Positions 36,244 through 59,174 of a stretch of 64,000 nt of DNA are shown one piece after another. The notes below the pieces were generated by a model that worked only from the letters and a program-made list of their open reading frames with translations, searched no databases and had not been told where the DNA came from. A program made the position numbers and the translations under genes. The first letter of the stretch is position 1, and the number at the start of each line of letters is the position of its first letter. Source of the DNA: a virus. The stretch spans positions 1 to 64,000 of IMG/VR virus record IMGVR_UViG_3300020200_000015. One strand, given 5' to 3'.

Positions 36244-37155
36244 TCAAGCAGTACGAATCTTCATCAATGTAAGATGAAAAAGTGTGAGCATCTGCCTAGC
36301 GTCATCAGCATCAGATGTGACTTTCAAAGCAACTGTTTTCGAACCAGTCTGATTAGACGAATCAATATTGTATGACCAAGCTGGGTCATATGCGGTAGCA
36401 GTAGCATTGGCTACAGTAGGTTGAATTCCATCTACCATCAGCGCTCCACCAATTTTGGCGGCACCTGCGACTGAGACAGATCCTTGCACGCGCGAAATTG
36501 CCAGATTGCTAGTATCAGACGTTATCAACGTAGGATGAGTAACGTCGATGGTGAAAGTTCCAACTTCGAACGTGTAAGTATATGTGCGATCATTTCCTGA
36601 ATCGTTTGTGATTCCTACAACAGCATCGACGGTGATTCTATCGCCATTAGAAATGTTGACAGTAACGCCACCGACTTGCAATGCAGTCGTGCTGAGTTCA
36701 TCAATCTCTTCTGCTGGATGAGATGAAAGACTGTAGAGTAGTGTGCCAGAGATAGATGTATTGAGTTGGTTGAGCGTTACAGCATCGCTCATCGCAGTCG
36801 CTTGGGCAAGCGACGTAATTCTAATTGAGTTAGCATTGATTGAACCACTCAATACCGCATTAGAGATGAGTGGAGCAACATAGTGACCGCTCACTACTCG
36901 TGTACTATGCGACTGCAAGATAAGATTGCCTGAGTTAACGCGGGTATCCGCGTACAGGTCAATCATCGCATTTGAAATCTTGAATACTTCTGAGCCGCTT
37001 GACGTTGTAACTTCGACAATAGGGGATGTTTGCCCGGCGCTGAACCCAATTGCTCTGATTGACGGCTTATCAGAACTCGGTCTAGCGTGAAGTGTGCCGC
37101 TCAAAAGCTCAGACACGCCACCAAGATTGATATCGTCGAAGATGTTAATCATCAC
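36244..37155 (-). CDS. minor tail or fibre-associated structural protein
   Basis: Last gene of the tail module; beta-rich, with the ITSLA.AT..SDAVT..QL fibre motif. Confidence 0.65.
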
Positions 37156-40100
37156 ACGCCAGCGTTGTTAGTGATGCAGATTACTGTGAATGTGCCGCCA
37201 CTTGGCAAGGCTTTGAACGTGACGTCGAATGCCGAGGTGCTAGAGTGCTTGATACCGCATTGCAGGACTTCAAGAGTCGAAGCATTGAGGATCGTCACGT
37301 GCGGAATGGATTTGAGATTATGTGTGACCGTGAAGACGCCCGGCGCGCTAGGCGGCGAGTAATCGTTCTGAAAATGACCACTGGCCTTGTAGAGTTGCGT
37401 GTCGAGCTTCGTAACTGCTTCTTCAACGCTATCACCTTCAACAGCATAATTAAGTCCTCCGATCCAAAGACCTGAGTTGCCGGTTGCTACGAGTCCGTCA
37501 AATCTGTTGAGCTGCGTGCGCAGCTTGCCAATGTCGCCGCCCCAGACGATCGTGCCAGATGGAATGCTCTTGTTGTAATAGAGCGCATCAGGGTACTCAC
37601 CATCATCGCTGTAGTGGGCACCGTGAATGCCGAAGTTGTTGATGATGACATTTTGAGTAGTGATGCCGCCACCAGCACCAGTCACTCTCGTCACTGTACC
37701 GCCAATGCCGAACGCACGACGACTGACAATCCTGTCTTGTCGAATGTCAATTCCGAGCGCGTCGCGCAACATGCCGAAGATAGCGCCGTGGATGCCAGTG
37801 AAGGCAACGCGAGCGTTATCATCAGTGTTGATTTGAATCAGCCCTTCGCTGTTGATAGCGGTAGGCATCAAGTAGCCACCAGCATTGATGGCATACCGGC
37901 CAGCGGCATCGACAGCCATATCCGGCGGCCTAGTGCTCAGGCGCAGGACTGATCTAATGAACAGCGTGTTATCGTGTGCGTTATCCCTCGGGTTGACGAC
38001 CGGGAACGTAGGCTCATTGGTCGTGGCACCAATGGCAACGTTCGGAACACCACCGTTGCCGCCAAATCTCGCCGACCACTCAATCGCACTGAGTGCAATT
38101 CGCGGGTTGGTATTGACAATGCGCCGCTTGACTTCAGCGTAGTTAATCGTGTTGTCGAGCGGTACCGGCGCTTTCGAAATAGTCAGTCCGCTTGAGGAGA
38201 TTGTCGATGATGTGACTGTAGTCGTGTCATTGAGTACGCCGTCTTGGTCGGCGTTGTAATCGTTCGCCAAGTCTTCGATATTGGCCTGGCCCTCAAGAAT
38301 GCCTCTGTACTCATCACTTCTAACGTCCTTGAAGACAAACGTGGCACCACGATTCGTCAGGACGTTTACGTTAGTGATTGAATCAAACGTCTTATCTGCT
38401 GTTGCCGTTGATGCAAATGAGTTCGAATCGGTCAGGTCGTAGCTACCAATGAATTCAGTCAGCAGCACGAACTCTTCGTTACCGTCGATATCGGTAAAAA
38501 GAATCTTGTTGCCAGTGCCGAATTGATTGAGCGGGTCGCCAGGGAAGGCGCTGATGCAGCACGCTGCACCGCTTGCGTTACCAGCGCCGGTCGGGCCTTG
38601 AGGACCAGTCGGACCCGTCGGGCCGGTAGGACCAGTTGGCCCCGTTGGCCCCGTTGGGCCAGTCGGGCCAGTCGGGCCAGTCGGGCCAGTCGGGCCAGTA
38701 TCGCCCTTATCGCCCTTGTCACCCTTCGGACCCCTATCGCCCTTGTCACCCTTCGGACCCCTTTCGCCCCTATTGCCATCTCGGCCATGGTTACCCGGCG
38801 GCCCGGTCAGCGGCCCCATTGGACCGCCGCGCCGGCCCGGCAGAGGAATTGTGATCGATCTTCTAAACGGCACAAAGTCAACTACCGCATCGTCAGCATC
38901 ATGCGTAGTAATGATCTGATCGAAAACTATCGTAATCGAACTACTGGTAGCGCTTCCCTGGAGCGTGCCGCCTAAAGTTAATGTGACTGGTATGCGCTTA
39001 TAGCCAGCAGTTCCGATAGTCGATGGCACACGGTGAGGCCCGAATATTATGCCGTGCGGGTGGCCGCCAGAGCCGCTAGAGTGATTGAAAAGTAATGCAT
39101 CTACATCTTGCGCGCTATCAGGATAGAAGCCAAGAGTGAAGATCTTAGATCTAAATGATGCGGCATAGCCTGTTACTGCTTCGGTCTCATCATTGATAAG
39201 AACGCCAACACCACTCAATTGCTTGTGGCCTATTTCAGCTGAATTCTCATTGATTCTAATCCTGAAAGGTGTCGGCTGCGTACCTGAAGGTACGTTATTG
39301 AGATTCAGATTAAGTATTCGATTGAATTTAATTGCGCTGCCAGTAGCATCAAATGCTTCAGAACCAAAGAAGCAGGCTGCAAACTGTGCTAAATTTGCTT
39401 CTTGATCTCTGAGTTTGTCAACAAGTGTATTGAGAGAATTAACTATCGCTTCGATCGCTTCTTCTAATGCTGTAGCAGTCGTGTGAGACGCAGTGCTAGT
39501 CCAATCGCCATACAGAATCTTCTTACTGATTATGTAGTTTCCGCCATTAATGCCGCTAAAGATATCGTTGATAGTACCCGTGTCTATACCCAACTTTCTC
39601 CACTTAGTATCAGGAGTCGTAATTGCTGGGTTCCAATTTCTGATTATTCCTCCGGTAGAGGCTGTTGTGCGAGGATCAAATTGATTTCCAATAAAATTAA
39701 GTCGCCTATCTTCTGGCCACGACACGCTACTGACTGAAACAGAATCGATTACATCATCATTGCTGTCGAGCAGATCGATTGTACTACCAGTGCCGCGTAG
39801 GCGCGTGCCGAAGGTGCGCTCGCCGCCGCCGGTATTGACTTGCAGCAGCGTTTTACCAGAGGTTCCATTCCAGGTAGTCTGCCATCTGCAGAACGCCATG
39901 TAGTTACTGGCGAAGGCATTGAAATAAAACATTCCATTGTCTTGACTGCCAATAACTTTCAGATAAGTGCCGCCAATTAGGATGTCAAATACAGGCGTCT
40001 CTACACTGCTAAAATTGGGTAGGCCGCTCGATCCAGTTATTACTTGCGCGGCTTCATGGAACTCCACCTTGGCTTGCTGATTACCTATGACTGGGTTATC

Positions 40101-58617: not shown

Positions 58618-58640
58618 CTGAGTTGTCCTCTTTTGTTAGA

Positions 58641-59174
58641 TCACGCCAGCGTCGCGGGGGCGATCGCAGCCAGACCGTGCAGCGGCAAGCCGGTGAGCTT
58701 GACGTCAACCACGTTCATTCCAGTGAAGGGGACCGTGGTGGCCGTGTAGTTACCGCCAACCGCGAACCCGACAAGAGCGCCACTGATGGCACCCATCCAA
58801 ACATCGCCGATGACGTTATCGGTGACGCCCGAGGCCACGTTGCTCGTGAACTGCGCCCAAAGCGGGTCGCCATCAACGACAAGCGTACCGGAAGCAGGCA
58901 GGCGGAAGGTAAACACGCCCGCGATGGTCATGTCACCCTTGCCGGTGCCCGTCTGTGACTCAGCTGCAACGCCGTCGCCGATCTGAATCGGACGACCGTC
59001 CAGCGTAGTCAGTTGGACCGTTGAACCAGTGATGTCATCCTCGACAACACCGATCCAGGCTCTGCCGGTCGCCGCGCTACCCGTGCGACGGTAGAGGCTA
59101 CCGCCCACGATTGTACCACTCGTCACGCCACTGATCGTGATCGAGTTACCCTGCTGACGAAAGTTCTTAGCCAT
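58641..59174 (-). CDS. capsid decoration/cement protein (DUF2190-like)
   Basis: MAKNFRQQG..ITI, GV..., GVF and GD.LW; AGGAG SD. Confidence 0.8.
   Translation of the reverse strand: MAKNFRQQGNSITISGVTSGTIVGGSLYRRTGSAATGRAWIGVVEDDITGSTVQLTTLDGRPIQIGDGVAAESQTGTGKGDMTIAGVFTFRLPASGTLVVDGDPLWAQFTSNVASGVTDNVIGDVWMGAISGALVGFAVGGNYTATTVPFTGMNVVDVKLTGLPLHGLAAIAPATLA

Follow-up and report, generated by a model that had tools for sequence, protein, structure and literature searches.

We analysed the structural and glycosyltransferase (GT) genes of a phage contained in the first 64 kb (hereafter, the window) of an 82,960-bp viral contig from IMG/VR (IMGVR_UViG_3300020200_000015), which is classed as linear and ~74% complete. 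An earlier note on this DNA had proposed that Ser-Gly (SG) dipeptides, which recur in the predicted virion-surface proteins, are the acceptor sites of a phage-encoded O-glycosylation pathway. Every gene in the window lies on the minus strand. The structural genes follow the order terminase (62468–63982), portal, protease/scaffold, a Gly-rich protein of 177 amino acids (aa), HK97-fold capsid, a GT4 glycosyltransferase, small neck proteins, the 52426 protein, tail tube (phrog_1407), tape measure, large distal tail proteins and the 36244 protein. The eight proteins whose SG content is at issue, together with the capsid-adjacent GT, are encoded as follows.

58641–59174, minus strand: Gly-rich 177-aa protein (called decoration in the earlier note), between the protease/scaffold and capsid genes; 5 SG, 1.7 expected.
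57616–58617, minus strand: major capsid protein, HK97 fold (PF25209), 333 aa; 5 SG.
56098–57480, minus strand: GT4-family GT-B glycosyltransferase (PF00534, E = 3.4e-14; PF20706, E = 7.9e-11).
54029–54475, minus strand: 148-aa neck protein (called head closure); 4 SG.
53572–54036, minus strand: Neck1/tail-completion-like protein (called gp10-like; phrog_5), 154 aa; 4 SG.
53003–53572, minus strand: 189-aa protein (called terminator); 3 SG.
52426–52962, minus strand: 178-aa protein (the 52426 protein), between the terminator and tube genes; 5 SG, at residues 101, 121, 128, 147 and 162.
51632–52348, minus strand: major tail (tube) protein (phrog_1407), 238 aa; 4 SG.
36244–37155, minus strand: 303-aa Ser-rich distal tail or fibre-like protein (the 36244 protein); 7 SG, 2.8 expected; weak match to PF03906 (T7 tail fibre N-terminus), E = 0.002.

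The description of these proteins as surface components is backed by family matches for the capsid, tube and Neck1-like proteins only, and several of the other labels rest on gene position. The decoration and terminator proteins each have zero Pfam or PHROG matches, and Pfam, PHROG and protein atlas searches with the 52426 protein yielded no usable match.

Recounting reproduced the SG counts of the eight proteins exactly (37 in 1,720 aa). The counts previously given for the comparison set were right for DnaE (5/720), SbcC (3/717), the helicase (1/488), the terminase (1/504) and the protease/scaffold (0/412) and wrong for RecA, which has 4 SG in 391 aa, not 3; the tape measure has 11 in 1,678 aa. 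We corrected for Ser and Gly content by shuffling the residues within each protein 2,000 times. The enrichment survives this correction, with 37 SG observed against 14.0 expected (standard deviation (s.d.) 3.3; z = 7.0; observed/expected ratio (O/E) 2.63) and none of the 2,000 shuffles reaching 37. The raw five-fold contrast separates into a ~1.8-fold component from higher Ser and Gly content and a ~2.6-fold component that belongs to the dipeptide itself. Of all 400 dipeptides, SG is the most strongly over-represented in the eight proteins, the reverse dipeptide GS is not enriched (15 observed against 14.1 expected; 1.07), and the 45 genes below position 36244 together encode 47 SG against 46.8 expected (O/E 1.0). 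The hydrophobic or small neighbours that had been described are also present: D, E, K, R, N, Q and H are absent on both sides at 84% of the sites, against 53% expected. The Ser codons at SG are a mixture of AGY and TCN, and 15 different hexamers encode the dipeptide; the signal therefore lies at the level of the protein, and a DNA-level motif is ruled out. The SG excess of the small virion proteins is genuine and holds up statistically.

Nucleotide and capsid-protein searches of 50,697 phage records returned zero matches for the window. Its relatives are metagenomic contigs of 70–120 kb, several of them from Tara Oceans and other aquatic samples. The only isolates matched are cyanophages, at low identity, and the terminase matches just one, a Microcystis phage, at 27% identity. 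The phage belongs to an uncultured marine siphophage lineage.

When 13 related loci and larger protein sets are compared, the excess resolves into a modest number of conserved hydrophobic-S-G-hydrophobic columns in the head-closure, 52426, decoration, tube and terminator proteins. The O/E within the lineage is 3.37 for head closure, 3.25 for the 52426 protein (3.23 over 65 sequences), 2.18 for decoration, 2.06 for the tube and 1.90 for the terminator. Three of the four head-closure sites are invariant in 8 relatives, and one of the tube sites is invariant. In the 52426 family, SG is retained at residues 101 and 121 in 65/65 sequences, at 147 and 162 in 62/65, and at 128 in 51/65 with the Gly invariant; a TTxSG block is unchanged in all 65 homologues. 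The SG sites of the Neck1-like protein are not conserved (lineage O/E 1.15). Among further proteins, the chaperone reaches 2.07, and the protease (0.96), portal (0.90), terminase (0.85) and GT4 itself (0.64) occupy the range 0.64–0.96. Over the aligned homologue residues, Ser is kept in 55% of cases when it is part of SG and in 30% when it is not. Conserved SG columns with retention of the Ser are the pattern expected of fold constraints.

In the capsid family the modal count is two SG, which is the chance level, and the five in the window make its capsid an outlier in its own family. The O/E is 1.44 in 10 relatives and 1.17 over 57 homologues, and at the recurrent sites the Gly is kept while Ser and Ala alternate (24 Ala and 22 Ser at column 182; 24 Ala and 21 Ser at column 266). 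An AlphaFold2 (AF2) model of the capsid protein (predicted local distance difference test score (pLDDT) 81), which Foldseek matches to phage capsids including that of HK97, puts the SG sites where secondary-structure elements end. Directly after the spine helix (residues 150–181) come sites 182, 185 and 191, all within an S/T/G-rich loop (residues 179–196), site 266 forms a hairpin turn, and site 84 falls in a variable loop of low confidence. The S/T/G-rich loop has 9 S/T in 15 residues, and its low-complexity character is retained in relatives.

The nearest capsid relatives found in cellular genomes come from prophage-like loci in metagenome-assembled genomes of Rhodobacteraceae and other Alphaproteobacteria (L012–L017). 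These proteins are ~685 aa long, about twice the length of the window capsid, and share 23–29% identity with it over the capsid part; their extra N-terminal half may be a fused protease. Homologues of the window GTs were not detected at these loci.

For comparison with other phages, a structural block was defined automatically as the capsid gene and every following open reading frame (ORF) up to the first very long one. By this unbiased definition the window has an SG O/E of 2.16 (27/12.5), which rules out a pure selection artefact. Across 33 control blocks the mean is ~1.3 (s.d. ~0.4, range 0.66–2.25). Twenty prophage or gene-transfer-agent loci from Pseudomonadota, taken from capsid to tape measure, give a total of 1.26 (range 0.66–1.94; GS 0.98), and six distant prophages that share the capsid family and have no detected homologue of the window GTs give 0.96–1.93. 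The named phages range from TP901-1 (0.74) through L5 (1.10), S-CBS4 (1.30), lambda (1.67) and SPP1 (1.76) to HK97, for which the curated capsid-to-tube set reaches 2.25 (15/6.7), with gp7 at 4/1.0 and the tube at 5/2.2. HK97 has zero GTs among its 73 annotated features. The window is at the top of the control distribution but is matched by HK97. Also against such an artefact, a scan for runs of consecutive genes in the window gave p = 8e-6 against 6e-5 for the best of 59 other viral loci, the window being three times longer.

These controls bear directly on two expectations of a GT-dependent motif. SG excess does not accompany distant homologues of the GT4, since the 78 viral loci that carry them give only the general value of 1.26. 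A like SG density in GT-free phages, which the earlier note named as a refutation, is largely what HK97 shows, reaching its 2.25 with no annotated GT. The likeness between HK97 (gp5, gp7, gp10 and gp12) and the window extends to the capsid fold, to the O/E (2.25 versus 2.16–2.63) and to the lack of GS enrichment. The two differ in GT content, in SG density (1.36 per 100 aa in HK97 and 2.15 in the window) and in the sites themselves, which in HK97 are without a hydrophobic residue after SG. A general turn bias towards small residues before Gly was also considered; it fits the controls and fails for the window, where SG alone is raised.

On balance, the SG excess probably marks positions conserved for structural reasons in small, beta-rich virion proteins that form rings or shells, and not a glycosylation sequon. 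This structural origin is the best supported because positions with a small residue followed by Gly at the ends of strands and helices fit fold constraints, and because HK97 shows the excess as well. At a typical site, Ser-Gly lies between a hydrophobic residue and a second one that is hydrophobic or beta-branched, an arrangement that would permit turns, bulges or tight packing of strands. The same bias, usually weaker, is seen in the structural modules of GT-free phages and is nearly equal in HK97, with the present lineage at the upper end. Separately, the lineage keeps a GT4 with a four-cysteine insertion inside its head-gene block.

Several observations weigh against a purely structural origin. 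The eight-protein set, at 2.63 (37/14.1), lies above every control, and the control sample is modest, with automatically bounded prophage blocks that may include spurious ORFs. In the controls, small or polar residues in general are slightly over-represented ahead of Gly (AG, DG, NG, TG and SG all ~1.2), whereas in the eight window proteins Ser alone is raised in this position (TG 1.02, AG 0.78, NG 0.92, DG 0.96). The bias in flanking residues (84% against 53%) has no counterpart in the pooled controls. In the head-closure, 52426 and tube proteins the Ser of SG is almost never replaced by Ala or Thr, and these proteins may have a specific need for the Ser hydroxyl. Fold constraints leave two points unexplained, namely why these three proteins so strictly prefer Ser over Thr or Ala and why the flanks are hydrophobic.

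Some of these features also speak for the full pathway first proposed, in which hydrophobic-Ser-Gly is the acceptor sequon of a priming GT, with extending GTs and a methyl cap, and many virion proteins are coated. The SG-specific 2.6-fold excess, the consistent hydrophobic flanks, the strong conservation of Ser at most sites outside the capsid and the conservation of the GT4 beside the capsid gene are all compatible with it. We nevertheless regard this pathway as improbable. The case for SG as an acceptor sequon is weakened by HK97, which nearly matches the window in O/E without an annotated GT, by the capsid family, in which Ser alternates with Ala and enrichment is missing family-wide (1.17), and by mycobacteriophage Che8, whose structural proteins have an SG O/E of 1.04, that is, no excess.

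Che8 is informative as one of the phages with demonstrated virion glycosylation, according to passages in PMC12363180. Virion O-glycosylation has been shown in mycobacteriophages Che8, Corndog and Myrna (Freeman et al. 2023, as related in passages of PMC12363180, PMC11600133 and PMC12619734). The Cluster O mycobacteriophages carry three tandem GTs adjoining an O-methyltransferase, as set out in part of PMC11600133, and the window resembles this cassette in having three tandem GTs beside a methyltransferase, as well as a GT by the capsid gene. The enzymes shown to be required in mycobacteriophages include Che8 gp110 and Corndog gp38. When every GT and the methyltransferase of the window were compared by blastp with Che8 gp108–110, no sequence similarity was detected (best E = 0.28), and tblastn of three window enzymes against the 50,697 phage records gave either cyanophage matches only or none, with no mycobacteriophage matched. 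The arrangement differs too, with the GT genes of Che8 at the far end of its genome and the tandem GTs of the window embedded in a cluster of que genes. Furthermore, the mycobacteriophage glycans are located at the C-termini of capsid and tail tube subunits in the relevant passages of PMC12619734, whereas the motif in the window is a dispersed dipeptide, in a phage known from metagenomic sequence alone.

Outside phages, the candidate sites would share with the Ser-Gly xylosylation of proteoglycans, and with TibC/BAHT heptosylation of autotransporter beta-helices, a Ser acceptor in a short local motif. The proteoglycan Ser-Gly motif has acidic neighbours, whereas the window sites have hydrophobic ones. 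TibC is a bacterial heptosyltransferase that modifies a folded beta-helix protein and uses a four-Cys metal finger for substrate recognition (PMC4358343). Its GT-B fold with an inserted four-Cys finger offers a loose parallel to the capsid-adjacent GT4, which has a four-Cys insertion between its lobes and which would lend the sequon pathway some support. TibC is WaaC-like, however, and proteoglycan xylosyltransferase is not a GT4 enzyme, whereas the window enzyme has the EX7E motif of GT4.

The GT directly behind the capsid gene is a GT4 enzyme, with the Pfam matches given above. Its AF2 model (mean pLDDT 95.8; predicted template-modelling score 0.93) has the two Rossmann-like lobes of the GT-B fold, and Foldseek aligns it with GT4 structures 3oy2, 4xsu, 6kih, 2jjm, 5d01 and 3c4q (E = 6e-20 to 1e-15). 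Both Glu residues of the EX7E motif (E352 and E360) are invariant in 66 homologues. In all relatives examined, with capsid identity down to 46%, the GT4 gene follows the capsid gene directly or with up to four small ORFs in between. The insertion between the lobes comprises 55–65 residues (residues 229–281 of the protein) and has four conserved Cys (C229, C258, C266 and C269), which are kept in 34–39 of the 40 closest homologues. It is confined to this clade, the segment as a whole being missing from the 26 distant homologues of ~395 aa. Judged from its Cys pattern, this insertion looks like a metal finger.

Distant GT4 homologues were found in 523 matching stretches of viral contigs. In a Pfam tally their neighbours are mostly GTs, methyltransferases and sugar-nucleotide enzymes, with some terminases, and no capsid family is among the 25 Pfam families listed around them. 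One distant homologue, gp014 (GT group 1) of the cyanosiphovirus S-CBS4, shares 23% identity with the window enzyme over 82% of the query (E = 2e-9). Like the window enzyme it is encoded inside the head block, in its case between the portal and capsid genes, and a methyltransferase (gp016) is encoded two genes downstream. Unlike the window GT4, gp014 has 380 aa and, as with the distant homologues of ~395 aa, is too short for a 55–65-aa Cys4 insertion, and the structural SG O/E of S-CBS4 is 1.30. In this Synechococcus phage (L119), positions 9916–12282 hold GT group 1, hypothetical and methyltransferase genes between the portal and head genes.

Virion glycosylation is plausible in this lineage because the SG enrichment survives composition correction, the GT4 is conserved in the head block and its S-CBS4 homologue occupies a head module. 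The GT4 is probably a late-acting enzyme whose target is a virion protein or the cell envelope. That it glycosylates the virion in any form is a reasonable but tentative proposition, which we doubt somewhat, and that it does so at SG is much less likely still. No evidence links the GT4 to SG. In the most specific version of the idea, the GT4 acceptors would be the serines that the tube, decoration, head-closure and 52426 proteins carry in conserved hydrophobic-S-G-hydrophobic sites, with the putative Cys4 finger gripping folded subunits; we consider this scenario very unlikely.

Alternatively, the GT4 could glycosylate the virion on exposed Ser/Thr-rich loops or termini, with the SG excess incidental. 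The candidate regions would be residues 179–196 and the C-terminus of the capsid, as well as residues 85–100 of the 52426 protein. This possibility agrees with the conserved place of the GT4 gene in the head block, with the analogous GT and methyltransferase in the head module of S-CBS4 and with the low-complexity capsid loop retained in relatives. In structure, the GT4 is best matched by a GT from chlorovirus NY-2A (3oy2), and chloroviruses glycosylate their capsid with their own enzymes. The known mycobacteriophage glycans also lie on capsid and tube C-termini and not on a dipeptide motif, as far as the passages in PMC12619734 describe them. However, gene position alone does not show the target (the GT genes of Che8 are far from its structural genes), and the further Foldseek neighbours are generic GT4 enzymes (sucrose-phosphate synthase, and HepE, BshA, MshA, PglA and PimA, which act on small molecules, lipids or polysaccharides), with no protein O-GT named among the matches listed. 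Glycosylation of Ser/Thr-rich loops is therefore possible but, in our estimation, unlikely.

The remaining GTs lie at the other end of the window. The six GTs counted in the earlier note reduce to five by Pfam (5841–6608, 7897–8742, 8776–9726, 9723–10664 and the capsid-adjacent 56098–57480), two of which (5841–6608 and 9723–10664) score just under the Pfam curated cut-offs; the sixth candidate, at 2051–2575, is without a Pfam or PHROGs match. The methyltransferase that had been reported is present. Together with the genes next to them, these enzymes form two adjoining runs.

5841–10664, minus strand: GT2, GT1-like, GT2, Methyltransf_24, 93-aa ORF, QueD and GT2_4 genes (by Pfam), the methyltransferase (Methyltransf_24/CmcI-like) at 7343–7900.
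2572–5789, minus strand: FolE, QueC, HNH endonuclease (4486–5070) and QueE-like radical-SAM genes, continuing the cluster.

The que, GT, methyltransferase and HNH genes as a whole occupy window positions 232–10664. FolE, QueD, QueE and QueC make up a set for preQ0 synthesis (PF01227, E = 6e-60; PF06508, E = 1e-64; PF01242, E = 1.5e-32; radical SAM/Fer4_12). QueD is encoded between the methyltransferase and a GT2, and QueE, QueC and FolE come directly after. In two relatives (G123 and G125), GT2 genes again lie a few kb from QueC. Two relatives at a greater distance (G124 and G126) retain the SG-rich proteins yet have only one weak GT2 match each. These arrangements count against a single priming, extending and capping pathway of six GTs, as the FolE/QueC/QueD/QueE cluster encloses four of the GTs and the methyltransferase. 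A non-virion target is therefore at least as likely for these five enzymes. They belong with the preQ0/7-deazaguanine genes, and their assignment to the virion is not justified.

The 5841–10664 genes could, for example, modify DNA, a nucleotide precursor linked to 7-deazaguanine or a host envelope glycan, and be unrelated to the virion proteins. The interleaving with que genes and its recurrence near QueC in relatives point in this direction, as does the company kept by the distant GT4 homologues, which are found mostly among GT, methyltransferase and sugar-nucleotide genes and not among capsid genes. However, on the 82,960-bp contig the TGT/DpdA model (PF01702) matched nothing with E up to 1; the completeness of the contig is ~74%, and phage DpdA can diverge so far that the model may miss it. 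Searches for DpdA candidates through PDB, NCBIfam and PF01702 gave none, and a literature search found no report of glycosylated 7-deazaguanine in DNA. As a specific account of the cluster, such a role thus seems to us rather improbable, if less so than the full sequon pathway.

Two further observations concern relatives of the window. At one locus (L006, 3413–6088) the terminase homologue has 891 aa, against 504 aa in the window, at 52% identity, and its greater length points to an insertion, for example of an intein or an additional domain. At another (L007, 16720–19914), a 1064-aa ORF has an N-terminal part homologous to the 189-aa terminator.

In summary, the main value of these results is cautionary: a dipeptide excess may persist after correction for composition and yet be common to virion folds in general, and GT-free phages are therefore needed as controls. 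Two useful leads are the GT4 linked to the capsid gene, with its Cys4 insertion, and the 52426 family, whose five conserved SG sites include four that are invariant or nearly so. As an isolated cyanosiphovirus, S-CBS4 would be a tractable system for virion glycosylation outside the actinophages. Should the SG serines prove to be GT4 acceptors, the lineage would provide the first case outside the actinobacteriophages of a phage particle with motif-directed protein O-glycosylation. If virion glycosylation does occur here, a phenomenon known only from actinobacteriophages would extend to abundant marine phages, and the lineage would offer a compact pair of enzyme and substrate for study.

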